Below the pieces are notes generated by a model, which did no database searches, was not told where the DNA came from, and saw nothing but the letters and a program-made list of their open reading frames with translations. Both the position numbers and the translations under genes were made by a program. Of a DNA stretch of 64,000 nucleotides, positions 22,297-33,473 are shown piece by piece. Origin of the DNA: Caldisericia bacterium (GTDB lineage: Bacteria > Caldisericota > Caldisericia > JAAYUI01); the NCBI GenBank assembly GCA_963674785.1, contig OY771555.1, forward strand, positions 1,824,001 to 1,888,000, in the 5' to 3' direction. Each line of letters starts with the position of its first letter. Position 1 is the first letter of the stretch.

Positions 22297-23316
22297 TCAT
22301 TTCAAACTTGATCTCATATAGGTTCCACCTGGAAGTTTTTTTATAATATTTTTCAAATCTAAAACTGTTAAAACTGGTAAAACAGCCTCCGGAGGAAGAT
22401 TTAGAGCTGTGCAAAGTTCATCTAGTGTAAGCGGATTTGAACAAGCTGCAACAACCTTTGATTCAAGATCGCTTAAAACAGTTTCGTTACTCTGAAGACC
22501 CACACCAAGGACTTCAAGCACATCATTTGGGGAATCAACGAGGATCGCTGAATCCTTTATCAACCTGTTGCATCCAGCAAAACTGTTCATACCAGGAAGC
22601 CCTGGGCAAGCCATCACATCTCTTCCAAGCTCCATTGCTTTCCTTGCAGTTATTAATGCTCCAGACTTTTCTGGGGCTTCAACGACAACAATGGCAGATG
22701 AAAGTGCTGCAATTATTCTATTTCTCCAGGTGAATGTCCATTTGCCTGCAGGGAAATTATCTGGGAATTCCGAAACAATAGCTCCTTTTTTAATAATCCT
22801 CTCAGCAAAGGATTTTTTTCTACTTGTGAGCTTCCCGATACCTGAACCGATAACGGCAACAGTTGTTCCATCCGCATCAAGACAGCCTTCATGTGATGAG
22901 CTATCTATACCATCTGCAAGGCCTGAAACAATAGAAATACCAGAGCTTGCTATGTCTCTGGCAAACGATCTTGCAATGTGCATGCCCTGAGGTGTTGCCT
23001 TTCTTGTTCCAACCATGGCAACGGAATTTTTTGAAACTTCATTAAGATCTGCATTACCCCTCATAAATAAACAAACCGGTGGGCTTTCAAGGTGAAAAAG
23101 CGCCACCGGATATTTTTCATCATCCTGAGTAATAATCTCAGAATCAGACTCTCTTAACTCAACCTCAGCAAACTTTCGGGCTTCGCTGAGGGCTTTCTTA
23201 TCAATACTACCTAGAATACTGTCCGGACTATTTTCTTTTACAGCCGAACAGATGGAAGGCTTCCTGCTTGCAAGAATTGCAAGAGTCAACCAATCCAATC
23301 TAGATAACTCACTCAC
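22297..23316 (-). CDS. dprA: DNA-processing protein DprA
   Basis: VGTRKAT, VSGLADGID, RNRIIAALS, VVEAPEKSGALITA, C-terminal winged helix. Confidence 0.95.
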   Translation of the reverse strand: MSELSRLDWLTLAILASRKPSICSAVKENSPDSILGSIDKKALSEARKFAEVELRESDSEIITQDDEKYPVALFHLESPPVCLFMRGNADLNEVSKNSVAMVGTRKATPQGMHIARSFARDIASSGISIVSGLADGIDSSSHEGCLDADGTTVAVIGSGIGKLTSRKKSFAERIIKKGAIVSEFPDNFPAGKWTFTWRNRIIAALSSAIVVVEAPEKSGALITARKAMELGRDVMACPGLPGMNSFAGCNRLIKDSAILVDSPNDVLEVLGVGLQSNETVLSDLESKVVAACSNPLTLDELCTALNLPPEAVLPVLTVLDLKNIIKKLPGGTYMRSSLK

Positions 23317-23582
23317 TATAGCTTTTTATTATAGACCCAAGTCAATGAAGCCAAACCGGTGAAAACCAAAAAGGCACCGAAAGAGGCAACAACCCACTGC
23401 TGAAATGGAGTTTTGTCAAGCAGATATTTCATACTTCCTGCCGAACTCATCAATCTCTCAACTCTTTTAATGTTGTCGGGTCGAATGGCATCCCATACCT
23501 CAAGACCAATTATCAAACAAAGACAGAGGGCTGCAAGCGCCACAAGGACAAACATAATTGCGGTTGCTTTTTCTTCCTTCAT
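23316..23582 (-). CDS. small two-TM membrane protein, last gene of the Rieske/cytb-Flx operon
   Basis: Two hydrophobic segments; abuts the neighbouring genes. Confidence 0.7.
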   Translation of the reverse strand: MKEEKATAIMFVLVALAALCLCLIIGLEVWDAIRPDNIKRVERLMSSAGSMKYLLDKTPFQQWVVASFGAFLVFTGLASLTWVYNKKL

Positions 23583-23831
23583 CTATTTTTCCTTTCCTAA
23601 CAAATTCTCAAAAAATGATACTTTTCTTGTGATTCTTCCCCTTGCCTTTTCAGATGCATACATCCCAAAAACGAGAAGAAACATCGAAACCAAAAAGAGC
23701 AAAAAGAAAACAATAATCTGAAAATAGAGCATAAACCCACTAAAATCAGATTTGACTAAATTTACTATCTGAGAAACTGAGAATATCGCAGCAAACAAAG
23801 CCAAGAAGAAAAGTATCAAATGTTTGTTCAT
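23583..23831 (-). CDS. small two-TM membrane protein in the Rieske/cytb-Flx operon
   Basis: Two hydrophobic segments; 1-nt overlap with the cytochrome b stop, GAGG SD. Confidence 0.7.
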   Translation of the reverse strand: MNKHLILFFLALFAAIFSVSQIVNLVKSDFSGFMLYFQIIVFFLLFLVSMFLLVFGMYASEKARGRITRKVSFFENLLGKEK

Positions 23832-25885
23832 TATTCGGCTCTCACCTCTACCAAACCAGGGTCAATTCCGAGTTTTTCAGCAAGAACTTTCTTTTTATTG
23901 GATTTCCTCATACGCCACCAGACATAAAGCAGGAAGGCAACAATAAACACAAAAGCATTAAAGAGAAGAATTGCATTTATATACAACTGTCTTTGAGCAT
24001 CTTGGAACGGAATCCAATAAGCAGCCAATGAACCAAACAAGAAGAAGGTTAGACCGCCAATCGCAAGCGTGATAAGTCCAGGTCTTCCCTTGGCTGATCT
24101 TTCGGGTCGTTTGTCAAACAGTGGAAACATGACAAGGAAAACAATGAATAGTAGCGTAACGAGTGTTCCAACATATCCCGGAAGGAATTTCAAATAGAAG
24201 TAGACAAATAGGAAATACCAATCCGGCAGAATATGGTCGGGCGTTTTTACGGTGTTCGGAGGTGGTTCGTTTGCCGCAGGCAGATATAAACACGCGGAAA
24301 CAATTACAACCACAAGCAATAGTATTGCAATCCAATTTATCTTTGGTCGCTTTTTCCTTGATCTGATAAAGTATATCTCTGCCATCATAAATAGAAGGAT
24401 CGGCAAGAAATAATGGATAATATTGAATCTGAGGATTGTTGTTTGTCCAACCTGATGAGCTCCAAGACCCATATACTTTAGAGCTGAACCAAGACCTAAT
24501 TGTCCAATAACCGGCATACTATCCAGAGAATTCATCATCTGAGTACCAACAGTCGTAGCCCAGTATGCCCTTTGGTCGAATGGAAGAAGGTAACCTGTGA
24601 CACCAGAGAATGTTATTAGAACGACAATGATTGTAAGGAGTATCCAAGTAAGTTCGCCTGGTTTTTTAAACTCACCACAGAAAAACATTCTTATCCACCT
24701 AAGCATAAGAAGTGCAATAATTCCGTATGCACCATATCTATGGATTCCTCTTATCCACTGGGTAAGAGGTTTTTTTGAGATTTCTGCAACAGAATTATAA
24801 GCTCTGGTTACTGTCACGCCCAAATCTTCTGTGATTGTGTCGGCAGATTTTCCCATCAAACCAGTAAGTTCTTCAACAGCAATCTTCACAGCATCATCTT
24901 TACCATGGGCAAAATGATGGAGCTTTTCTTTCTGTTCTTCCGACAGGTTAGCAAAAATTGGTTCAAGTTTTTGAGATTCTTCGATTGCATCGGGAATAGG
25001 TAATCCAGCATATGTTGTACCATCAATGACTTCAGCTTTTGTTTTTCCCGCAAACTGAAGAATGCTTCTCTCATAATCAGTGACCGTATCGCTTTCCTTG
25101 AGCATTGCTTCATCTGCTTCAGCAATCATATCATCAATTGTGATAGTTGTCTTTTCACCATTTTCAATCTTTGCTATAGGTAGCCCATAAGAAAGAAGTG
25201 TTGTAGAATCCTCGCTCAACCTATAAATAGAAAACAACTCAATGATATGGTCTCGAAGAACATCAGCTTCATCAATGGCCTCGGTTATCTGAGTTTCTCC
25301 ATGATATGTTCCGGCAACCAAATCATCAGCATCCTCAGAGGCAAGTTCCATGATTTTAAGATAGTTTTCATCACAGGCAACTTGCTCTTCATCTGTCATC
25401 TTCTTGTATTCTTTTTCATGACTTTTACCAAGAGTAATGAGTCCCTCAAGGTCTCTGACAGGTGAATCGATCTCAAGATTTTCGACTACATATTCAAAAT
25501 CCTTTTTTCCAACAACCTCAAAAATCTCTCTCTGGTGTTCAGAATCAAAATCATAATGCTCGATAAAAAGATGATGAATCTCCTCTGCCTCTTCCATCAC
25601 CATCTCATATGTATGTCCATGTGAATACGTAACAAGCCCGGGTTCAACTTTATCAACTGGTGTGGTGTCAGGAATATAGAGGAATGTCAACACAAGCCCG
25701 AGGCAGACCTGCAAAATGAGCAACACATATATCATAGAACCCATCCAGTAGAATGGATTCGATTTCTTATACTCAGGTGTATTTTCATCCAGAATATTCA
25801 TATTCTGGGCTCTATCTCTCCACCATCTCATCCACTTTTTCGAGAAGTTTGAGAGCCAAATTGCAAATTTATCTGTAATACTCAC
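23831..25885 (-). CDS. cytochrome b (Rieske/cytb family) with ~285-aa insert; Qo motif PDWY, bL His retained, bH His replaced
   Basis: IRGIHRY, FKKPGELTW, TGYLLPFDQRAYWA, GQTTILRF..IH, TPDHILPDWYFL; His382/His491 present, Arg396/Tyr505 at the bH positions. Confidence 0.92.
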   Translation of the reverse strand: MSITDKFAIWLSNFSKKWMRWWRDRAQNMNILDENTPEYKKSNPFYWMGSMIYVLLILQVCLGLVLTFLYIPDTTPVDKVEPGLVTYSHGHTYEMVMEEAEEIHHLFIEHYDFDSEHQREIFEVVGKKDFEYVVENLEIDSPVRDLEGLITLGKSHEKEYKKMTDEEQVACDENYLKIMELASEDADDLVAGTYHGETQITEAIDEADVLRDHIIELFSIYRLSEDSTTLLSYGLPIAKIENGEKTTITIDDMIAEADEAMLKESDTVTDYERSILQFAGKTKAEVIDGTTYAGLPIPDAIEESQKLEPIFANLSEEQKEKLHHFAHGKDDAVKIAVEELTGLMGKSADTITEDLGVTVTRAYNSVAEISKKPLTQWIRGIHRYGAYGIIALLMLRWIRMFFCGEFKKPGELTWILLTIIVVLITFSGVTGYLLPFDQRAYWATTVGTQMMNSLDSMPVIGQLGLGSALKYMGLGAHQVGQTTILRFNIIHYFLPILLFMMAEIYFIRSRKKRPKINWIAILLLVVVIVSACLYLPAANEPPPNTVKTPDHILPDWYFLFVYFYLKFLPGYVGTLVTLLFIVFLVMFPLFDKRPERSAKGRPGLITLAIGGLTFFLFGSLAAYWIPFQDAQRQLYINAILLFNAFVFIVAFLLYVWWRMRKSNKKKVLAEKLGIDPGLVEVRAE

Positions 25886-25899
25886 CTATCTCCTCCTTC

Positions 25900-26742
25900 T
25901 CAAAATACCGGCATTTCATCAACTTGTGCAGCTGAGAAAACTGGACCATCCTGACATACATAGTGATGTCCAACATTGCACCGACCACATTTTCCAAATC
26001 CACAATTCATTCTTGCTTCAAGTGAAACAAAAATGTTTTCTTTTGGGAAGCCAATCTTATCGAGTGCTATCAATGTGAACTTGATCATTATCGGTGGACC
26101 AGACGCTATAACTGCAGTATTGGTAAATCCTGGGTCATCCTTAAACAGAAGCGATGACTTGTTTGCGAATTCTTTATCATAGAACTGAGGTACAACACCT
26201 ACATCGTGAGTCCAATTTTTGTCACCGTTATCAACAGTCAGCTTGATGTCAAAGTCTTTGACAGATTTCCATTCATCAAGTTCTGGTTTGAAAACAAGGT
26301 CACCTGGTGTTCTTGCTCCATACAAAAGCTCCATTCTTTTGAAGTCATTTCTGTTATCAAAAGTATACTGCATAATGTTGCTAATAGCTGGAAGCCCAAC
26401 ACCACCAGCCATGAATGAAATATTCTTGCCTTTAAGTTTGTCTACTGGGAAGCCATTTCCAAATGGTCCCCTGAATGTGAGATTGTCACCAACTAAGTGC
26501 TCATGGATTTTTTCAGTAACCGCACCAACACTGGCAATAGTAAGCTTGATAAATCCCTTCTGAGTTGGGGATGAACCGATAGAGATTGCGGATTCACCAA
26601 CACCCGGAACACCAACAATACAAAACTGACCAGGATTATAATTCAAATCATTCTTGAGTTTCAGCTTGAATGATTTTATAGACTCTGTTTCATTGATAAT
26701 TTCTAAAATTTCAACTATTTCTGGTTTTGACATATCTGTCAT
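25900..26742 (-). CDS. FAD/NAD(P)-binding [2Fe-2S] oxidoreductase (FlxA / sulfhydrogenase gamma / AsrB-like)
   Basis: PGQF...GESAISI, RGPFGNGF, GGVG, YGART, GPPIM, CGFGKCGRC...VCQDGP; AGGAGG SD before ATG 26742. Confidence 0.9.
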   Translation of the reverse strand: MTDMSKPEIVEILEIINETESIKSFKLKLKNDLNYNPGQFCIVGVPGVGESAISIGSSPTQKGFIKLTIASVGAVTEKIHEHLVGDNLTFRGPFGNGFPVDKLKGKNISFMAGGVGLPAISNIMQYTFDNRNDFKRMELLYGARTPGDLVFKPELDEWKSVKDFDIKLTVDNGDKNWTHDVGVVPQFYDKEFANKSSLLFKDDPGFTNTAVIASGPPIMIKFTLIALDKIGFPKENIFVSLEARMNCGFGKCGRCNVGHHYVCQDGPVFSAAQVDEMPVF

Positions 26743-27782
26743 AAAACACCTCCTAATGAGGCTAATGTGTCTGCAAGAGAGATTCCAGCAGGACAAAGGT
26801 CTGTGCATCTTCCACAACCTGTACATGCAATCTCGCCATAGAGAGTCACATGATATTCAAATTTATCCAAGATTCTGTTTTTGAATCTGTCAGCGGTTGT
26901 TGGTCGCGGGTTGTGTCCGGATGCCTCAAGGCTGTATGTGCAGAAACTACAAGAGTCCCAGCATTTAATCTTTTCAGATTCATCTGGTTTCGTCTTGATC
27001 TCTCTGGTTTCAAAACAGTGACATGTCGGGCAAAGAAGGGTACAGACACCACATGTGATACAACCCATGCTAACTTCTTCCCAAACATCTGTTTTCTTGT
27101 AGAGATCCATGAGTTTTCCGGCGTTTTCTGTTGGAACCTTCAAAGTAATCATGGATTCACATTTTTTGTTTGCCTCAGCCTGGGCAGCAGCGGGATTTCC
27201 ATCATCTGTGAAGAAGGATTTATTATCAGCAAGGAATTTTTTTCCTTTTTCTGAAACCTGCATCACAGTGTATCCACCAATGTCTGGAATAAAGAGAAGG
27301 TCTGAACCCTTTTCATCTGCAGGATGAATTCCAAGTGATGTACATGAACAGGTTGAAAGAGGTTTTGTGCAGGCAACCGAAAAAACAAGGGTTTTTTCAC
27401 GATGTTTCTTCCACTGTGGATCAATATGCTTCTGCTCTCCACCATCTTTTCTTTTTGTGTCCATAAAGAAATTATCAAGGAGCATAAATCCTTTTGCATC
27501 GCACGGTCTCACACCAAAAATTACAGTGTTCTCGATTTCAGGTGCTTCTTTAATTTCAAGTATTTTTCCAGCGGTCGATCTTGTTGTAAGAATTTTTTCT
27601 GTCTGCGGAAAGATAATCTCTTTTGGTGGTGTTTTTGTTCTAACTGTATCCAAATCTATTTTTGCATTTTCAGCAATTAGATGAAAATTTGTTGTTCCAT
27701 CAATCTTCTGAGGGACAAAAACTCTCGCATTATCAGAGATTGTAAGAAGAAGTTCGTTAAGTTTATCGTGTGTAATCTTCAT
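26739..27782 (-). CDS. 4Fe-4S protein (FlxB / sulfhydrogenase beta / AsrA-like)
   Basis: PKEIIFP, GVRPCD, CITCGVCTLLCPTCHCF, WDSC, CTGCGRCTDLCP. Confidence 0.88.
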   Translation of the reverse strand: MKITHDKLNELLLTISDNARVFVPQKIDGTTNFHLIAENAKIDLDTVRTKTPPKEIIFPQTEKILTTRSTAGKILEIKEAPEIENTVIFGVRPCDAKGFMLLDNFFMDTKRKDGGEQKHIDPQWKKHREKTLVFSVACTKPLSTCSCTSLGIHPADEKGSDLLFIPDIGGYTVMQVSEKGKKFLADNKSFFTDDGNPAAAQAEANKKCESMITLKVPTENAGKLMDLYKKTDVWEEVSMGCITCGVCTLLCPTCHCFETREIKTKPDESEKIKCWDSCSFCTYSLEASGHNPRPTTADRFKNRILDKFEYHVTLYGEIACTGCGRCTDLCPAGISLADTLASLGGVL

Positions 27783-27787
27783 AAAAA

Positions 27788-28780
27788 TCAACCCCCTAAA
27801 ACTTCCTCACCCTTTATGAGTGACAATGGGGATGTAGCCTTTTCAGAGATTCCAGCGGCAAATTCCCAGTTTTCCTTCTGCATCAGTCTGAGCTGGTCTG
27901 TAATAATATTCAATGGAATATTCTCAGGACACGCCCTTGTACATTCGCCACAACCAGTGCATCTGTCTGAAAGGTGGTAAAAGTGAATAAAATGATACTG
28001 CAGAATGTCTTTTAGTTCGTGTGATTTATGAATGAATGGTTCAGGAAGCTTCTGCCTGTCCATAACACAGTTCTCATTACAATGACAGCCTGGGCAGGCA
28101 TCTCTACACGCAAAACACATTACACATCTTGAGAGGTGTTTTAAAATGAAGTCCTGTCTCACATGGAATGGTTTATCTTTATATTCAGAAACCCAATCCA
28201 TATTCATTTCATCCTTTGACTCTCTTGGATCGTCATCTGGAATCAAAAGATCGAAGTTATCTGGTTTTGTGATTGAACAATGGATACATTTTGGAAGCAA
28301 CCAATCTTCTCTCTCGAGTTTCATCTTTGAACCATCGAGGAGTTCAAGCTGAATACTCTTTCCATCATCAATGATTTCTTTTGAGTCAATATGAAGTGAA
28401 TCTCTCATTCGAGATACATCAAGGTTTCCTGAGCAGTTTACTCCTAGTACCCAGAAACCGTGTCTGTCGAGTTTACTCTCAGAGACGCTGACTTTTATCG
28501 ATTTTGAATCACACCCTTTAACAAGAATTCCAATTTTTTTCTTTGGCTGTTTCAAAGATTTTATGAAGTTGCTTTTTCCTTCAATCATCCTCACAAGGTT
28601 TTGAGTGCAGAACGAATCGTAAACCAACTTATCAGCATCCTCTGCTGTCCTACAAACGAATGGTCTTCTTTTTCCAGATATTCCGTCTACTTTTCTATAA
28701 CCGATAAAAGCAGAGATTTTTCCAGAGTTAAGCTCATCTTTTACTACCTCGCGGAGGTACTCTAAAATCTGTGTGTTCAT
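27788..28780 (-). CDS. 4Fe-4S protein (FlxC / FdhB-FrhB-like)
   Basis: KGCDSK, KCIHC, CVMCFACRDACPGCHC, CTGCGECTRACP. Confidence 0.85.
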   Translation of the reverse strand: MNTQILEYLREVVKDELNSGKISAFIGYRKVDGISGKRRPFVCRTAEDADKLVYDSFCTQNLVRMIEGKSNFIKSLKQPKKKIGILVKGCDSKSIKVSVSESKLDRHGFWVLGVNCSGNLDVSRMRDSLHIDSKEIIDDGKSIQLELLDGSKMKLEREDWLLPKCIHCSITKPDNFDLLIPDDDPRESKDEMNMDWVSEYKDKPFHVRQDFILKHLSRCVMCFACRDACPGCHCNENCVMDRQKLPEPFIHKSHELKDILQYHFIHFYHLSDRCTGCGECTRACPENIPLNIITDQLRLMQKENWEFAAGISEKATSPLSLIKGEEVLGG

Positions 28781-29184
28781 ACAGCAACCTCCTTTTCAGC
28801 AAGATTCTTTTTTAGAGATGAGATTGTTCTTGTGAGTTGACCAGGGTCAAGCCTGTCTCTTTGAATGTAAACCATTCTCCATGGGTCAATTCCAAGAGCC
28901 TCAGCTACATTTTTTGCTGAGAAGACCCTTCTTTTTGCAAATTGGTTTCCATCAAAATTGTGGCAATCAAACTCGGGGCAGGCGTAAACAATAACACCAC
29001 CCGCACCCTCCATTAGTGACTTAAACATAACAATAGGGTTTACCATTCCAGCACAAGCAATTTCGACAAAATCGACGCTTGGAAACCTGTTTTTATGTTC
29101 TTCAAGATGTTTTCCTCGAAGAGAACCTTTACAATGAAGAACAATGATTTTCTCACCAATAGGAAGTTCTACTGACTTATGCAT
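28777..29184 (-). CDS. MvhD/FlxD-type [2Fe-2S] subunit
   Basis: Four-Cys pattern LHC...IACAGMVNP...GAGGVIVYAC...DCH..GN..AKRR typical of MvhD. Confidence 0.88.
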   Translation of the reverse strand: MHKSVELPIGEKIIVLHCKGSLRGKHLEEHKNRFPSVDFVEIACAGMVNPIVMFKSLMEGAGGVIVYACPEFDCHNFDGNQFAKRRVFSAKNVAEALGIDPWRMVYIQRDRLDPGQLTRTISSLKKNLAEKEVAV

Positions 29185-30239
29185 ATATCCCTCATTCCCT
29201 GGAGCAATCCTTTGCTCTCCATTCCTTCAAGTTCAATCACCTGAGGAAGACAACCAGCAACGCATATCCCACAAGCCTGACATCTTCTCGGCGTAACATA
29301 TGCAACCTGTTTGGTTTCAGTTCTGTTGATTTTATATGTTTTTTTGCTTATTGCATTTTTTGGACAAAGAGTAATGCATGCAAAGCAACCATTACATCTG
29401 GCAGGGTCAACTTTCGCTGCTTTTGTAATCTTTTTGCCAATAAGAGGTAATGCTACAAGCAGACCCACAATGCCAACCCAAACGATCTGTGCAATGTTTT
29501 GAGATGGCAGTTTTATCATCCATAATCCAACCCAATCAAATGAATATTTAGCAAATTTCATTTTCATTTCGGCTTCAGGGATTGGGAATAGTGCAATAAT
29601 TATTGCAAGGAAACCCAATGAGATAATCGTAAGAGCAATTGTTGGAACAATTGGTGGTCTCGAAATTCTGACGAAATGCCAAATGAGTCCAGCAAAAACA
29701 AGAATAGGAAGACCAATGTGTACAGCTCTGTAAATAACCAGCAGGGCACCAGAAGAAATCGACATCCCGAAGAACTCAACAATTTTAAATGACCTTGCAT
29801 CCATAGGAAGAATATATCCAGAAACAGTGATTCCAATGGTCATAATAAGAAGACCAATACCGACATACCAACCAACTGATCTTGTGCTTGTATGTCTTCC
29901 TGCAAAAAGTTTTCTGAGTAGATGCAATACAGCAAAGATTATCATTGCATCTGCTGCATACCTGTGGAGTGTTCTGATAAATAATCCATAAGGTACCATA
30001 TCAGACATAATGTAAAGAACAGAGTTTCTCGCATGTTCAATCGATGGCATATAAAAGAAACTAAGAAGGAACCCTGAGATTATCTGAACAAGAAAAAACA
30101 ATAATGTCAGAGAGCCAAGATGATTGAAAATATTAATTGATGAAAAACCTGCCTTTAAAACGTCAGCGATTCCAAGAAACCCATTAATGAAAAAATTAAA
30201 AGGTTTTCTAAGACTATAAGCATCTCGTCTACTCATCAT
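29169..30239 (-). CDS. cytochrome b (four heme His) fused to a C-terminal 2x[4Fe-4S] ferredoxin domain
   Basis: IRTLHRY...VLH (H92/H106), SGYILPMD, AVH...IWH (H174/H188); CNGCFACITLCP and CQACGICVAGC; no PEWY motif. Confidence 0.9.
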   Translation of the reverse strand: MMSRRDAYSLRKPFNFFINGFLGIADVLKAGFSSINIFNHLGSLTLLFFLVQIISGFLLSFFYMPSIEHARNSVLYIMSDMVPYGLFIRTLHRYAADAMIIFAVLHLLRKLFAGRHTSTRSVGWYVGIGLLIMTIGITVSGYILPMDARSFKIVEFFGMSISSGALLVIYRAVHIGLPILVFAGLIWHFVRISRPPIVPTIALTIISLGFLAIIIALFPIPEAEMKMKFAKYSFDWVGLWMIKLPSQNIAQIVWVGIVGLLVALPLIGKKITKAAKVDPARCNGCFACITLCPKNAISKKTYKINRTETKQVAYVTPRRCQACGICVAGCLPQVIELEGMESKGLLQGMRDICISQ

Positions 30240-30796
30240 GCTAGCCTTTCCGGAGTTTTTTTATCAATAATTATGCTTCCATCATCTTCAACAATAACCG
30301 TCCAAGGATGAAGAGGGCTTGGAGGTGGACCACCAAGGACTTTGGTCATAGTTGGGTCAAAGAAACCATCATGACATCTACAATGCCATGTTTTTGATTC
30401 TGTATTCCATCTGACAACACAACCAAGATGAGTACATTTTGCATCCCAAGCCATAAGCGTACCATTTGTATCCTTAATCAAAATTCCGGGTTCCCTAATT
30501 TTGATTGGCTTGTAAGGGATTGAACGATCTTCGGTGATGATCTCAAAAGAATATCCGACCATGCTTTCAAGCTCATCTTTTTTCGCAGGGACTGGTACGA
30601 AAGAATCACCAACGGGTTTCATGACGGATGCTAATTTGTTAACCGCAACGGGCGCTGGTGGCACCTCAAGTCCAATCTTACCAAATGGCTTCAAAAGTCT
30701 GAGAATCGGTGATAAAGCAGCTAGAATTGCTCCAAAAAAAGGAACAGCTAGCAGGACTTTTAGCAGTTGCCTTCGAGTGACCTTTTTTTCTTCCAC
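30236..30796 (-). CDS. Rieske [2Fe-2S] protein of a Rieske/cytb complex
   Basis: TRRQLL twin-Arg plus TM anchor, CTHLGC and CRCHDG boxes, GPPPSPL; AAGGAGG SD before GTG. Confidence 0.93.
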   Translation of the reverse strand: MEEKKVTRRQLLKVLLAVPFFGAILAALSPILRLLKPFGKIGLEVPPAPVAVNKLASVMKPVGDSFVPVPAKKDELESMVGYSFEIITEDRSIPYKPIKIREPGILIKDTNGTLMAWDAKCTHLGCVVRWNTESKTWHCRCHDGFFDPTMTKVLGGPPPSPLHPWTVIVEDDGSIIIDKKTPERLA

Positions 30797-30990: not shown

Positions 30991-31018
30991 AAAAAAGCGG
31001 GGCTCAAGCGAGCCCCGC
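30991..31018 (-). terminator. intrinsic terminator of the NHL/stalk gene
   Basis: Minus strand GCGGGGCTC-GCTT-GAGCCCCGC-TTTTTT. Confidence 0.85.
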
Positions 31019-31040
31019 CAACATAAAGTTTTTGTTTTAT

Positions 31041-33473
31041 TTACCCAATATTTGGGTTGACAGGATAGTAGATTTTGATTGACTTTGTTGCACCAATCCA
31101 CTCGACAGATGCACCAAGTGCTTCACTTATAAATCTGAGTGGAACAACAGTTCGACCATTGATGATCAATGGAGCCACAGACATAGAAACAACACTTCCG
31201 TTAACCATTGCTTCAGACACACCAACCCAAAGTATAACTTCTCTTCCTTCAAGTTTATATGTAACTTTTTTATCGGTTCCGTCCCACTCAATTTCTGCGC
31301 CGAGTGCTTCACCAATAAATCTTAGAGGAACGACAGTGCTACCATTTTTTATAACCGGTGCAGGGTCAACTGGCACCGATTCATTATTGATAATTGCAGT
31401 ATTGGAATTTATCTGCAACTCAATGAGATTACCGATTCTTCTTGCTTTGCACTCAATTGTCGCTGTTCCGCCATTTGATTTGATTGTAATTGTACCTGTC
31501 GCATCACCCCAGGCAGAAAGTTTTGAAACATCACAATACACCTTAACAGCAAGATTACCTGTGAAAGTATTATCTGAGAATCTTAACCAAGGAACGTCTG
31601 TTTCAATTGATCCACTAAGTGCCGCAGAAGTCGAATTTGTGATTGTAAATGAATCCTCTAGAATCCCTGATTTTGACTGTGGAAAGTTTATTGAAGTTTT
31701 ATCAACCGACAAAATTGGTTTTACAACGCCTTTTTCAAAAATCTGAACTCTCTGATTACCTGAGTCGAGAACATATATCTTGCCTTCACTTGTAGCAAGC
31801 CCGGTTGGATTATTGAATGTTCCAAGATGGCTCCAATAATCATCAATCGATGTTTTAGTATACATCGGTGTTTTGTCACCTTTTGAATACAAGTGTTTGC
31901 CATCAATTGAGAAAAAATGAAGTTTGTTGTTTCCGGTATCTGATACAACAACACTCAAATCATCGGTGATACAAATTCCAGTTGGATTTTTCATATTGAG
32001 AGATTCGCCAAACGATCTCTGGAATTCACCCTCTTTGTTGAAAACCTTTACTATTCCGTCTTCAGCATCAAGAACATAAATATTCCCATCCATACCATAA
32101 ACGAGATCAACAGGTTTTAAGAACTGTCCATCCTCAGAACCAAAACTTCCAAAATGGCTAACATACAATCCGCCCTTATTGACTCGTGTCACTCTACCAA
32201 ATAAGGTCGAGAGTGTCCATATTTCACCATTAAGCCCTGAAGAAAGCGCATTCATTTCGGGAATTTCGGCATCAAGTTTCAGTGTTTCAAGTTTAGAGCC
32301 GCTACAACTATAAAAAACAACTTCATGACTGCTTTTTTTATAACTGATTATCTGTTGGTTTGAATCTGTTGAAAGTGGGACAACAGATTGTTTCGATGCA
32401 TCGGTACTTCCTGCGGGACCACCCTCACCAAAAAACTGAATAGAGCCTTTACCAAGATCAAATACTGCCAAACCACCACCGGCACATGCCGCAACCGACT
32501 GAGGATCATTAAACTGCATTGGGTCGGCATCGAATTCAGATAGCTCTTTTAACAGTTCGCCCTTATCAGAAAGCATGAAAAATCTCTTGGAATCTACAAA
32601 AAATAAGTTTTTACCAGTAGCGACAAAATCTGTCGCGTTGTCAATTACAACACCGACACTTTCAATCAAATTTCCTGATTTTGAATATTTAGCCGACAGA
32701 CCATATTGAACTGTGAAGAGGAAAAGATCACCATTTTTGTCAAATCTAATTTTTCCAGCTTTTGGGTTCTTTTCTTCAGTTGCTAAAACATTCACTTCGC
32801 CAGTTTTCGTATAGTTGTCATTGAAAAAAGTTATTTTGATCTTGTTTGGTTCGATGTTATCTGGATTGTCTATCTCAGACTCAACAATTGAGAGGATTGC
32901 AATATCTCCGTCTCTCGAAACATCAACTGCAGTAATATTTGGAACATCGACACCTATGTTTATTGGTCTTTTAACATATTCGCCATGTGAATCATAGAGG
33001 ACGATTCCCTCACTTCTGTCAGCAACAAGGATTGACAAATCGTTCAATAAAAATGCAGAAATCGGGTTTGAAATATGGCTATTTATACCAGCACCAATTC
33101 TATTAATTATATCTCCACTTGTACTTGCTACGGTAACAAAATCATTTGAAATATAACAAATATTTCCCATTCTAGCAGAAATGGAAGTTTTTATCTCAGT
33201 AGGTAAAACACTTGATGGAAGCTTGAAAGACTTGAAATAATTTCCAGTCGAAAGATAAACTGAGCCGTTTCCTGTTGATCTGTCGATTACATATATTTTG
33301 TCGTTCTCATCGATTCCGATACAACCGGGTTTCATTAGCTGTCCACCAATTGGACCATAACCAATAACACCTGATGATTCATATTCTGAATCAGCAACAA
33401 GCCCAGAAACACCAAAATTTATAAAAGCAAAAATTAGCAAAAATGCAAGCATAAATGCAAGAAATCTTCTCAT
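31041..33473 (-). CDS. secreted NHL-repeat beta-propeller protein with BACON-like and stalk domains
   Basis: Signal peptide; GQFLKPVDL, VSDTGNNKL, FNNPTGLA...VLDSGNQRVQIF; two TVVPLRFI.EALGA.(I/V)EW motifs. Confidence 0.85.
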   Translation of the reverse strand: MRRFLAFMLAFLLIFAFINFGVSGLVADSEYESSGVIGYGPIGGQLMKPGCIGIDENDKIYVIDRSTGNGSVYLSTGNYFKSFKLPSSVLPTEIKTSISARMGNICYISNDFVTVASTSGDIINRIGAGINSHISNPISAFLLNDLSILVADRSEGIVLYDSHGEYVKRPINIGVDVPNITAVDVSRDGDIAILSIVESEIDNPDNIEPNKIKITFFNDNYTKTGEVNVLATEEKNPKAGKIRFDKNGDLFLFTVQYGLSAKYSKSGNLIESVGVVIDNATDFVATGKNLFFVDSKRFFMLSDKGELLKELSEFDADPMQFNDPQSVAACAGGGLAVFDLGKGSIQFFGEGGPAGSTDASKQSVVPLSTDSNQQIISYKKSSHEVVFYSCSGSKLETLKLDAEIPEMNALSSGLNGEIWTLSTLFGRVTRVNKGGLYVSHFGSFGSEDGQFLKPVDLVYGMDGNIYVLDAEDGIVKVFNKEGEFQRSFGESLNMKNPTGICITDDLSVVVSDTGNNKLHFFSIDGKHLYSKGDKTPMYTKTSIDDYWSHLGTFNNPTGLATSEGKIYVLDSGNQRVQIFEKGVVKPILSVDKTSINFPQSKSGILEDSFTITNSTSAALSGSIETDVPWLRFSDNTFTGNLAVKVYCDVSKLSAWGDATGTITIKSNGGTATIECKARRIGNLIELQINSNTAIINNESVPVDPAPVIKNGSTVVPLRFIGEALGAEIEWDGTDKKVTYKLEGREVILWVGVSEAMVNGSVVSMSVAPLIINGRTVVPLRFISEALGASVEWIGATKSIKIYYPVNPNIG

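Follow-up and report, generated by a model that had tools for sequence, protein, structure and literature searches.

The 64,000-bp window analysed here (positions 1,824,001 to 1,888,000 of contig OY771555.1, assembly GCA_963674785.1, a Caldisericia bacterium of the lineage JAAYUI01) contains nine tightly packed genes on the minus strand, running from 30796 down to 23316 in the list of open reading frames (ORFs) of the window. They encode, in order, a Rieske protein, a cytochrome b (cytb2), an MvhD-like protein, a 330-amino-acid (aa) iron-sulfur (Fe-S) protein, beta and gamma subunits of sulfhydrogenase type, a second cytochrome b (cytb1), and two small membrane proteins. The two cytochromes b have complementary losses: cytb1 has an intact quinol-oxidising (Qo) site and no ligands for the inner haem bH, and cytb2 has all four haem-binding His and a degenerate Qo motif. 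We propose, tentatively and at a little under an even chance for the statement as a whole, that the nine genes encode one asymmetric Rieske/cytochrome b complex with NAD(P)H as the electron donor. The architecture, a heterodimer of the two cytochromes b with a cytoplasmic Fe-S arm, is reasonably probable; the direction of the electrons, from NAD(P)H to the haems, is more doubtful than the proposal as a whole.

The identities of the gene products were assigned using Pfam and searches against solved structures. The Pfam Cytochrome_B model matched cytb2 and cytb1 with expectation (E) values of 1e-24 and 3.4e-24, respectively. Cytb1 (684 aa; 23831-25885; all operon coordinates refer to the minus strand) has eight helices, with both termini on the Lys/Arg-rich, cytoplasmic side according to hydropathy and charge, and matched spinach cytochrome b6 (6rqf_I) in phmmer with an E value of 3.3e-25. 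In this alignment, its haem bL ligands His382 and His491 align with the first His of helices B and D, while Arg396 is found under the second His of helix B and Tyr505 under the second His of helix D. These second histidines of cytochrome b6 are the ligands of the inner haem (bH, or bn). A codon check showed that 24698-24742 translates to HRYGAYGIIALLMLR and 24371-24415 to HYFLPILLFMMAEIY. Cytb1 also keeps the Qo motif PDWY (aa 554-557) and the cd region, with a spacing of 59 residues between the helix-D His and the conserved Tyr that closes helix C. The first-pass annotation, made from the letters of the window, had described cytb1 as keeping both bL ligands, the cd region and PDWY, with Arg396 and Tyr505 at the bH positions, and the b6 alignment and the codons bear this out. 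Judged by its sequence, cytb1 is without both bH ligands, so that only the outer haem bL is expected. The presence of haem cn or a substitute cofactor was considered for cytb1 and rejected: Trp occupies what we take to be the haem-cn Cys position of b6, and residue 505 is variable, which makes a conserved ligand unlikely.

Cytb2 (356 aa; 29169-30239) is a six-helix, di-haem cytochrome b with a 2x[4Fe-4S] domain (Pfam Cytochrome_B and Fer4 families), and its best b6 match was 7r0w_I (E 2.3e-23). The codons of His92/His106 and His174/His188, each pair 14 residues apart, were checked. The Qo motif is degenerate, reading FDWV at 234-237, and the cd region is short, with 32 residues from the conserved helix-C Tyr to the helix-D His versus 59 in cytb1; the four His, the short cd region and FDWV, all noted before, were confirmed by the codons and by this measure. 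The ferredoxin domain (Cys282-330) follows the six helices on the Lys/Arg-rich side, and it is placed in the cytoplasm because hydropathy and charge put both termini of the protein on that side. The similarity between cytb1 and cytb2 is only about 1e-6 to 1e-8, as for diverged genes. Among the best 120 cytb1 matches, no natural cytb1-cytb2 fusion was found, and none of them had Fer4 domains. The window's genome (G000), a single 2.23-Mb contig with 92% marker completeness, contains single copies of the Rieske, cytb1, and cytb2 genes.

To follow these features across genomes, one genome per species was scanned, which gave 312 confirmed cytb1 relatives; 80 loci were kept, and ORFs were called in them and matched to the proteins of the window. 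All family counts are taken from these 80 loci, which hold the closest cytb1 relatives, so the counts describe that family and not cytochromes b at large. His382, Arg396, His491, and Glu503 were invariant in all 80 cytb1 relatives, and the Qo motif was [SP]DWY in all 80. Position 505 was occupied by Phe (38), Tyr (33), Leu (6), His (1), Trp (1), or Met (1), i.e., by a residue other than His in 79/80. The four His and the eight ferredoxin Cys were kept in 63 of 64 cytb2 relatives, the remaining one being truncated. As an alignment control, 119 database homologues of cytb1 were compared; position 396 was Arg in 109, Lys in 2, and His in 8, and these eight are ordinary four-His cytochromes b with His/His in the same columns and without Glu503. 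These alignments show that the complementary ligand losses are not due to chance and that the reciprocal pattern is a family trait; the losses first read from a single operon recur in homologous operons of several phyla (80/80 for cytb1, 63/64 for cytb2).

The two proteins also differ in the parts that are conserved. In the ef-loop segment, 9 of 21 columns were invariant in cytb1 and none of 21 in cytb2, and in the cd segment the numbers were 13/64 and 3/37, respectively. The haem-bearing helices were conserved to the same degree, with mean top-residue fractions of 0.71 (cytb1) and 0.73 (cytb2) for helix B, and 0.70 and 0.68 for helix D. This reciprocal conservation indicates that cytb1 has been kept as a one-haem protein with a quinol site; cytb2 has been kept for two haems and has no conserved quinol site.

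Cytb1 and cytb2 were found together in 64 of the 80 loci. The other 16 are not counter-examples, since their contigs end before the expected place of cytb2. MvhD adjoins cytb2 in 62/80 loci, and a Rieske gene was detected in 67/80. The pairwise distances of cytb1 and cytb2 were correlated (64 pairs, r = 0.986; 0.915 within the operon type B described below), the maximum of 500 shuffles being 0.125; this shows inheritance as a unit, as it would for any linked genes, and does not show contact.

The family spans Caldisericota, genomes labelled Armatimonadota, and Sysuimicrobiota/CSP1-3, and its operons fall into two types. Type A has the gene order of the window (Rieske, cytb2, MvhD, Fe-S protein, beta, gamma, cytb1) and was found in 23 Caldisericota loci, although one of the 23 records is labelled Calditrichota and one only 'bacterium'. 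The Calditrichota-labelled locus (L014) carries a type A operon, and its cytb1 falls among those of Caldisericota, beside L019, in a quick tree; its phylum label may be wrong. Type B, annotated in four loci, has the order Ccm genes, dihaem cytochrome c, Rieske, cytb1, one or two small ORFs, cytb2, and MvhD, and its operon is without the beta/gamma module; type B records are labelled Armatimonadota, Sysuimicrobiota, Bacillota, or unclassified. The 330-aa Fe-S protein was found only in type A loci (17/80). The short cd region of cytb2 is likewise special to type A (32-37 residues versus 51 in 46 of 47 type B rows). In the quick cytb1 tree, 17 type A rows and 47 type B rows were split by a branch with 100% support in the Shimodaira-Hasegawa-like approximate likelihood ratio test (SH-aLRT), the root being arbitrary. 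Two type B loci (L031, 13082-14596; L025, 13153-14874) have a gene for a 504-573-aa protein after MvhD, with one for a FixO-like or monohaem cytochrome c behind it. The 504-573-aa protein had no match in Pfam, and the 504-aa one of L031 had none among solved structures either.

The remaining genes of the window's operon encode the electron-transfer proteins on either side of the cytochromes b. The Rieske [2Fe-2S] protein (186 aa; 30236-30796; Pfam Rieske, 1.9e-07) contains the boxes CTHLGC and CRCH, an N-terminal twin-arginine motif (TRRQLLK), and one hydrophobic helix at 14-32; a TatC gene is present in the genome. Next to cytb2 lies the gene for an MvhD/FlpD-like small iron-sulfur protein (135 aa; 28777-29184; Pfam FlpD, 6.6e-19), followed by that for the 330-aa Fe-S protein (27788-28780), which has two CxxCxxCxxxCP motifs and matches only Fer4 families in Pfam. 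The C-terminal third of the latter resembles FdhB, the beta subunit of F420-dependent formate dehydrogenase (8rvu_E, 8.5e-20 over residues 200-315; 7bkb_E, 2e-14); no assignment was obtained for its N-terminal 200 residues. The sulfhydrogenase beta-like Fe-S subunit (ORF of 350 aa; 26739-27791) matched 9nez_B, the beta subunit of sulfhydrogenase 1, over its full length (1.5e-45) and Pfam Fer4_22 (1.3e-28); its true start is likely the ATG at 27782, as relatives align from residue 4. The gamma-like subunit (ORF of 308 aa; 25900-26826), predicted to bind flavin adenine dinucleotide (FAD) and NAD(P), matched 9nez_C (8.7e-50) and the Pfam families NAD_binding_1, FAD_binding_6, and DHODB_Fe-S_bind (a PyrK-type [2Fe-2S] site). 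Here the true start is likely the ATG at 26742 (280 aa), which overlaps the preceding stop codon; relatives are 280 aa long and align from residue 29-34. None of the nine products reached the cut-off of any NCBIfam model. The equivalog cut-offs for sulfhydrogenase (HydB/HydG, ShyB/ShyC) and AsrA/AsrB were missed by far, both by beta (171.8 versus 690, 169.1 versus 750, and 126.4 versus 323 for AsrA) and by gamma (175.6 versus 650, and 214.1 versus 288.6 for AsrB), and the cytochrome b6 cut-off of 325 was missed by both cytochromes b (122.5 and 95.9 bits).

The two bL haems of a cytochrome bc dimer lie opposite one another. A haem bL without bH behind it would have no outlet but a neighbouring redox centre, so that in the window's complex an electron would have to cross the dimer interface along bL-bL'-bH'; with this crossing as the only route, cytb1 and cytb2 would have to be neighbours, each forming one half of the dimer. 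From the sequence features, conservation, gene linkage, and homologies given above, we infer such a heterodimer, with three b haems per cytb1:cytb2 pair. In it, cytb1 would be the Qo subunit and bind the outer haem bL only; cytb2, without a working Qo site, would bind bL' and bH' and be continued at its cytoplasmic end by two [4Fe-4S] clusters. The predicted chain of cofactors and proteins would then run from Qo through bL, bL', bH', the two [4Fe-4S] clusters, MvhD, the FdhB-like protein, and beta to gamma with its FAD, and to NAD(P)(H). Electrons of NAD(P)H would enter bH' through the Fe-S arm. Together with those of quinol oxidised at the Qo site of cytb1, they would end on the Rieske protein and then on a candidate outer c-type cytochrome or other acceptor. 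The whole would work as a cross-dimer Q cycle with a single quinone-reducing (Qi) site beside bH' of cytb2, also fed by NAD(P)H. Electron transfer between the bL haems on the millisecond scale is described for cross-inactivated B-B fusions of Rhodobacter bc1, in which G158W disables Qo and H212N removes a bH ligand (PMC4330944).

The direction of electron flow was assessed using the Rieske signature and the gene content of the genome. According to the rule of ten Brink et al., as given in PMC4122944, a low-potential (about 150 mV) Rieske protein can be told from a high-potential (>260 mV) one by the second and fourth positions behind CxCH, which read G-F in the former and S-Y in the latter. 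In the window's protein, CRCH is followed by D-G-F-F, i.e., the signature is G-F, and so it was in all 16 type A loci. In type B, 49 of 52 were S-Y and one was S-F, the other two being unrelated small Rieske-like ORFs without the motif. A search of the window's genome found no cytochrome bd, haem-copper oxidase, molybdopterin enzyme, NrfD, or NarI-type cytochrome. Fumarate reductase was considered as a second quinol oxidiser and rejected, since the only full FAD_binding_2 protein is NadB, whose gene belongs to a nadA-nadB-nadC cluster. Given a Rieske protein of low potential, and as no strong oxidant was found, the transfer of a quinol electron to NAD(P)+ against the membrane potential looks unfavourable, and that from NAD(P)H to the b haems would be downhill; NAD(P)H is therefore, on sequence grounds, more likely the donor in this lineage.

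An 11-subunit NDH-1-type complex (nuoABCDHIJKLMN, without the NADH-binding nuoEFG) is encoded beside F-type ATP synthase genes at L083, 2803-12662 (G000 C1, about 1734800-1744660). The quinol made by this complex needs an oxidiser, and the two-cytochrome-b operon is the only candidate found. A complete system I Ccm cluster (CcmA, B, C, E, and F) is located at L081, 8076-13994 (G000 C1, about 1974000-1980000); it also holds a gene for a 505-aa protein without any family. Distributions were determined over 93 Caldisericota genomes, the window's genome, which has all three systems, being included in the totals and not in the family figures. The operon (cytb2 as the query, E <= 1e-25) was present in 10/10 genomes of family f1, 1/2 of f5, 11/13 of f6, and 0/67 others, 23/93 in total. 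Ccm (PF01578) was present in 10/10, 2/2, 12/13, and 0/67 (25/93), and NuoH (PF00146) in 10/10, 2/2, 0/13, and 21/67 (34/93). The Ccm distribution thus nearly equals that of the operon, whereas that of NDH-1 differs, NuoH being absent from all 13 genomes of the operon-bearing f6. This co-distribution suggests a c-type cytochrome as the partner of the Rieske protein, although the match reflects perhaps two or three independent events among kindred genomes and is not a statistic.

Two adjacent genes for secreted proteins, each with a single CxxCH and a Cu_amine_oxidN1 domain, were found at L085, 3773-5260 and 2878-3624 (G000 C1:1061772-1063259 and 1060877-1061623). The first, a 495-aa NHL-repeat protein (C1:1061772-1063259), has a C-terminal CSKCH segment with a weak, sub-threshold match to cytochrome c (7e-4). 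Of the 10 other genomes in the window's family, 9 keep this segment; elsewhere in the phylum it was not detected. The 495-aa protein is a candidate partner of the Rieske protein.

Several observations weigh against the proposed NAD(P)H-fed complex. The direction depends on a rule of thumb that reads the Rieske potential from sequence, and the Qi site on cytb2 is assumed. No c-type cytochrome gene was found in the operon, and in the window's genome there was no ORF with more than one CxxCH and none resembling the dihaem cytochrome c of type B. Nor did the genome yield HemB or HemC. MqnA was found in 0/11 genomes of the family, and MenB in 0/11 above the cut-off, with sub-threshold matches only, which we read as the kind expected from general enoyl-CoA hydratases; one UbiA-type prenyltransferase is encoded. 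With these genes missing, haem and perhaps the quinone head group would need uptake, and other members of the community may supply the organism with precursors of haem and quinone. Finally, according to Kao and Hunte 2014, relatives of cytb2 that are fused to MvhD occur in clusters without a Rieske gene, so that a cytb2 module can work without a cytb1 partner.

Different readings of the same genes were weighed. In the first-pass annotation, quinol was the donor, and electrons left over bL-bL'-bH' and the fused Fe-S domain and not through a Qi site. In this direction, one electron of quinol would go to the Rieske protein and the other along that path and the Fe-S arm, in a quinol-driven bifurcation towards NAD(P)+. 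The complementary losses behind this idea are real and recurrent, and the evidence for the architecture serves it as well as it serves the NAD(P)H-fed complex. At the end of the arm is an NAD(P)/FAD module, and bifurcation without Qi is proposed in print for two Rieske/cytochrome b complexes of anammox bacteria (PMC12954380), the closest solved relative of the window's Rieske protein being Kustd1480 of such a complex (9rk3_A, 2.1e-13). The exit of a quinol electron through the Fe-S domain is nevertheless doubtful. PMC12954380, in which the anammox complexes are proposed to make NAD(P)H, gives measured Rieske potentials of +303 and +335 mV, against the G-F signature (about 150 mV) of all 16 Caldisericota loci. 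With a low-potential quinone, the b haems would moreover sit above NAD(P)+, and the search of the genome yielded no strong oxidant system. For the window's operon, bifurcation is considered improbable; it may hold in type B, where the Rieske protein is S-Y in 49/52 and a dihaem cytochrome c lies upstream in the four scanned loci.

The same NAD(P)H module and low-potential Rieske protein would also suit an outward conduit without Qi, in which electrons pass from NAD(P)H through the arm, bH', bL', bL, and a Qo-bound quinone to the Rieske protein and an outer acceptor; this would dispose of reducing power without conserving energy. No other terminal reductase was found, secreted single-CxxCH proteins exist, and the Ccm genes are distributed nearly as the operon is. 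Such a conduit is hard to reconcile with the strong purifying selection on the Qo site of cytb1, which resembles that on a true quinol-oxidising site, or with the quinol of the 11-subunit NDH-1-type quinone reductase, which needs an oxidiser, and the outward electron flow would dissipate the membrane potential; we hold it to be unlikely. A similarly low probability is given to two separate, co-expressed complexes with no shared interface, namely a Rieske-cytb1 homodimer and a homodimer of cytb2 with MvhD and the Fe-S and NAD(P) proteins. Solved Rieske/cytochrome b complexes are all homodimers and are called homodimeric in the abstract of PMC7908018, and cytochrome b-ferredoxin-MvhD fusions related to cytb2 occur in Rieske-less clusters (PMC4122944). 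A cytb1 homodimer, however, would hold bL haems without an outlet, and cytb2 has no conserved quinol site (0/21 invariant ef-loop columns). Where the contig allowed the test, the two genes were never apart (64/64), and their pairwise distances track each other (r 0.986), though those of any linked genes would.

The NAD(P)H-fed asymmetric complex was compared with known systems. It shares with bc1, b6f, and menaquinol:cytochrome c reductases the CTHLGC/CRCH Rieske protein, b6-like four-helix bundles, PDWY in cytb1, and small membrane subunits, and, as in these, a Rieske protein with CxHxGC and CxCH boxes is encoded beside a cytochrome b. It differs from them in having two different cytochromes b instead of two copies of one. 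The four-His feature is found in cytb2 only and not in cytb1, and the conserved Qo motif in cytb1 (PDWY) and not in cytb2 (FDWV), which carries a ferredoxin domain. The window's operon also has no c1, f, or dihaem c gene. To our knowledge, complex III is always described in textbooks as a symmetric dimer.

The engineered cross-inactivated bc1 (PMC4330944) is alike in that one half has a dead Qo site, the other is without haem bH, and electrons cross from bL to bL. The engineered halves are laboratory point mutants of one Rhodobacter gene, and the path ends at Qi, whereas the window has two diverged natural genes and an Fe-S arm. The PDWF-FeS clade of Kao and Hunte 2014 (PMC4122944) comprises cytochromes b fused to 4Fe-4S and MvhD domains in clusters without a Rieske gene; about 30 database relatives of cytb2 (27-33% identity), e.g., from Turneriella and Magnetococcales, are cytochrome b-ferredoxin-MvhD fusions. 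In the window, MvhD has a gene of its own next to that of cytb2, FDWV stands in place of PDWF, and a Rieske gene and a second cytochrome b are present; by sequence, cytb2 with MvhD is a split relative of this clade. Kao and Hunte 2014 removed every sequence without all four His (PMC4122944). Cytb1-type proteins are undescribed in that work because this filter excluded them. Cytochromes b without one bH ligand are mentioned there for Pyrobaculum (PMC4122944).

The anammox complexes Kuste4569-4574 and Kustd1480-1485 (PMC12954380) also have a cytoplasmic Fe-S/FAD/NAD(P) module attached to their Rieske/cytochrome b core. They are modelled as homodimers with four-His b6-type subunits, haem cN, and multihaem cytochromes c. 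By comparison, the window's operon has an asymmetric core, a G-F Rieske protein, no multihaem cytochrome c in the genome, and an NAD(P) module of sulfhydrogenase beta/gamma type. The latter is similar over its full length to the beta and gamma subunits of NAD(P)-dependent sulfhydrogenase (9nez_B, 9nez_C) and to AsrAB, with the same Fer4_22, FAD/NAD, and PyrK-type [2Fe-2S] domains. Unlike in those systems, no [NiFe] hydrogenase subunits or AsrC adjoin it, the neighbours being MvhD, the FdhB-like protein, and the cytochromes b. A true sulfhydrogenase-type [NiFe] operon is located elsewhere in the genome (L084, 3116-7533; G000 C1, about 612100-616530); it comprises beta, gamma, small and large subunits and a maturation protease, and its beta and gamma are paralogues of the window's.

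In the full-text literature, with subscription-only papers and supplements outside reach, neither a natural complex with two unlike cytochromes b nor this operon was found. New here is the form seen in Caldisericota, which adds the FdhB-like protein and an NAD(P)/FAD module, together with an operon devoid of cytochrome c, the G-F Rieske protein, and a 280-residue acidic insert in cytb1. A stronger statement would be that of a natural cross-inactivated dimer, an obligate heterodimer in which each electron leaving the one Qo site has to hop from bL to bL', and whose Caldisericota form is fed by NAD(P)H and, by means of one quinone-reducing site beside an Fe-S wire, unites the work of complexes I and III in one complex of an oxidase-less anaerobe; this is possible but rather unlikely. 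The physiological role of bL-bL transfer has been argued for years on the basis of engineered mutants. If the proposal is true, a natural family in which bL-bL is the sole route would settle that this transfer carries physiological flux, and it would serve as a study system as well. The Caldisericota form would identify the cytoplasmic partner as NAD(P)(H), which other operons do not reveal, and the design would have been re-tuned from a high-potential setting (S-Y Rieske, cytochrome c) to a low-potential one (G-F Rieske). The operon also bears on energy conservation by the Caldisericia of anaerobic digesters and on the complexes that are proposed to produce NAD(P)H in anammox bacteria.

The acidic insert of cytb1 (24821-25660; about 280 residues, aa 76-355) lies in the outward-facing loop between helices A and B. 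It contains 68 Asp+Glu versus 24 Lys+Arg, and 12 His, and had no match in Pfam. The insert is absent from the 384-aa cytb1 relatives, and its length varies in others, with 4 loci at 111 residues and 6 at 276-309; it is poorly conserved apart from a His-Gly near its start and holds repeated G-K-[ST] stretches.

Most junctions of the operon are overlaps of 1-16 bases or gaps of at most 14 bases. A terminator-like hairpin (30996-31019, minus strand; 10 pairs, 8 of them G-C, followed by a T run) separates the Rieske gene from the NHL-repeat gene upstream and marks the 5' limit of the operon (31019-30996). From these tight or overlapping junctions and the terminator upstream, the nine genes are predicted to form one operon. 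Its last two genes encode small two-helix membrane proteins. The gene for the 82-aa one (23583-23831) overlaps the cytb1 stop codon with its start by one base, and relatives of this protein were found in 21/80 loci of both operon types. The 88-aa one (23316-23582), identified from the ORF list and hydropathy, has relatives in 10/80 loci, all of the window's own family.

Upstream of the hairpin lies the gene for an 810-aa secreted NHL-repeat protein with two Cu_amine_oxidN1 domains (31041-33473, minus strand). It was considered as a subunit of the complex and rejected: the terminator separates the gene from the operon, and its adjacency was given little weight. The 810-aa protein was matched by 110 ORFs of the genome (E<1e-5), mostly via the C-terminal Cu_amine_oxidN1 domain, and large genes like it flank the operon in another Caldisericota family, too. 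Contigs of a wastewater metatranscriptome with 90-95% identity cover 23314-23706, 24782-24922, and 25757-26738. This RNA evidence is weak and was not used as support: the contigs derive from a related organism, DNA may be present in the library, and a two-gene contig is not proof of a single transcript. Beside the sole UbiA-type prenyltransferase gene of the genome, phage portal, capsid, and tail-tube genes (L082, 8326-14858; G000 C1, about 579300-585860) probably represent a prophage.

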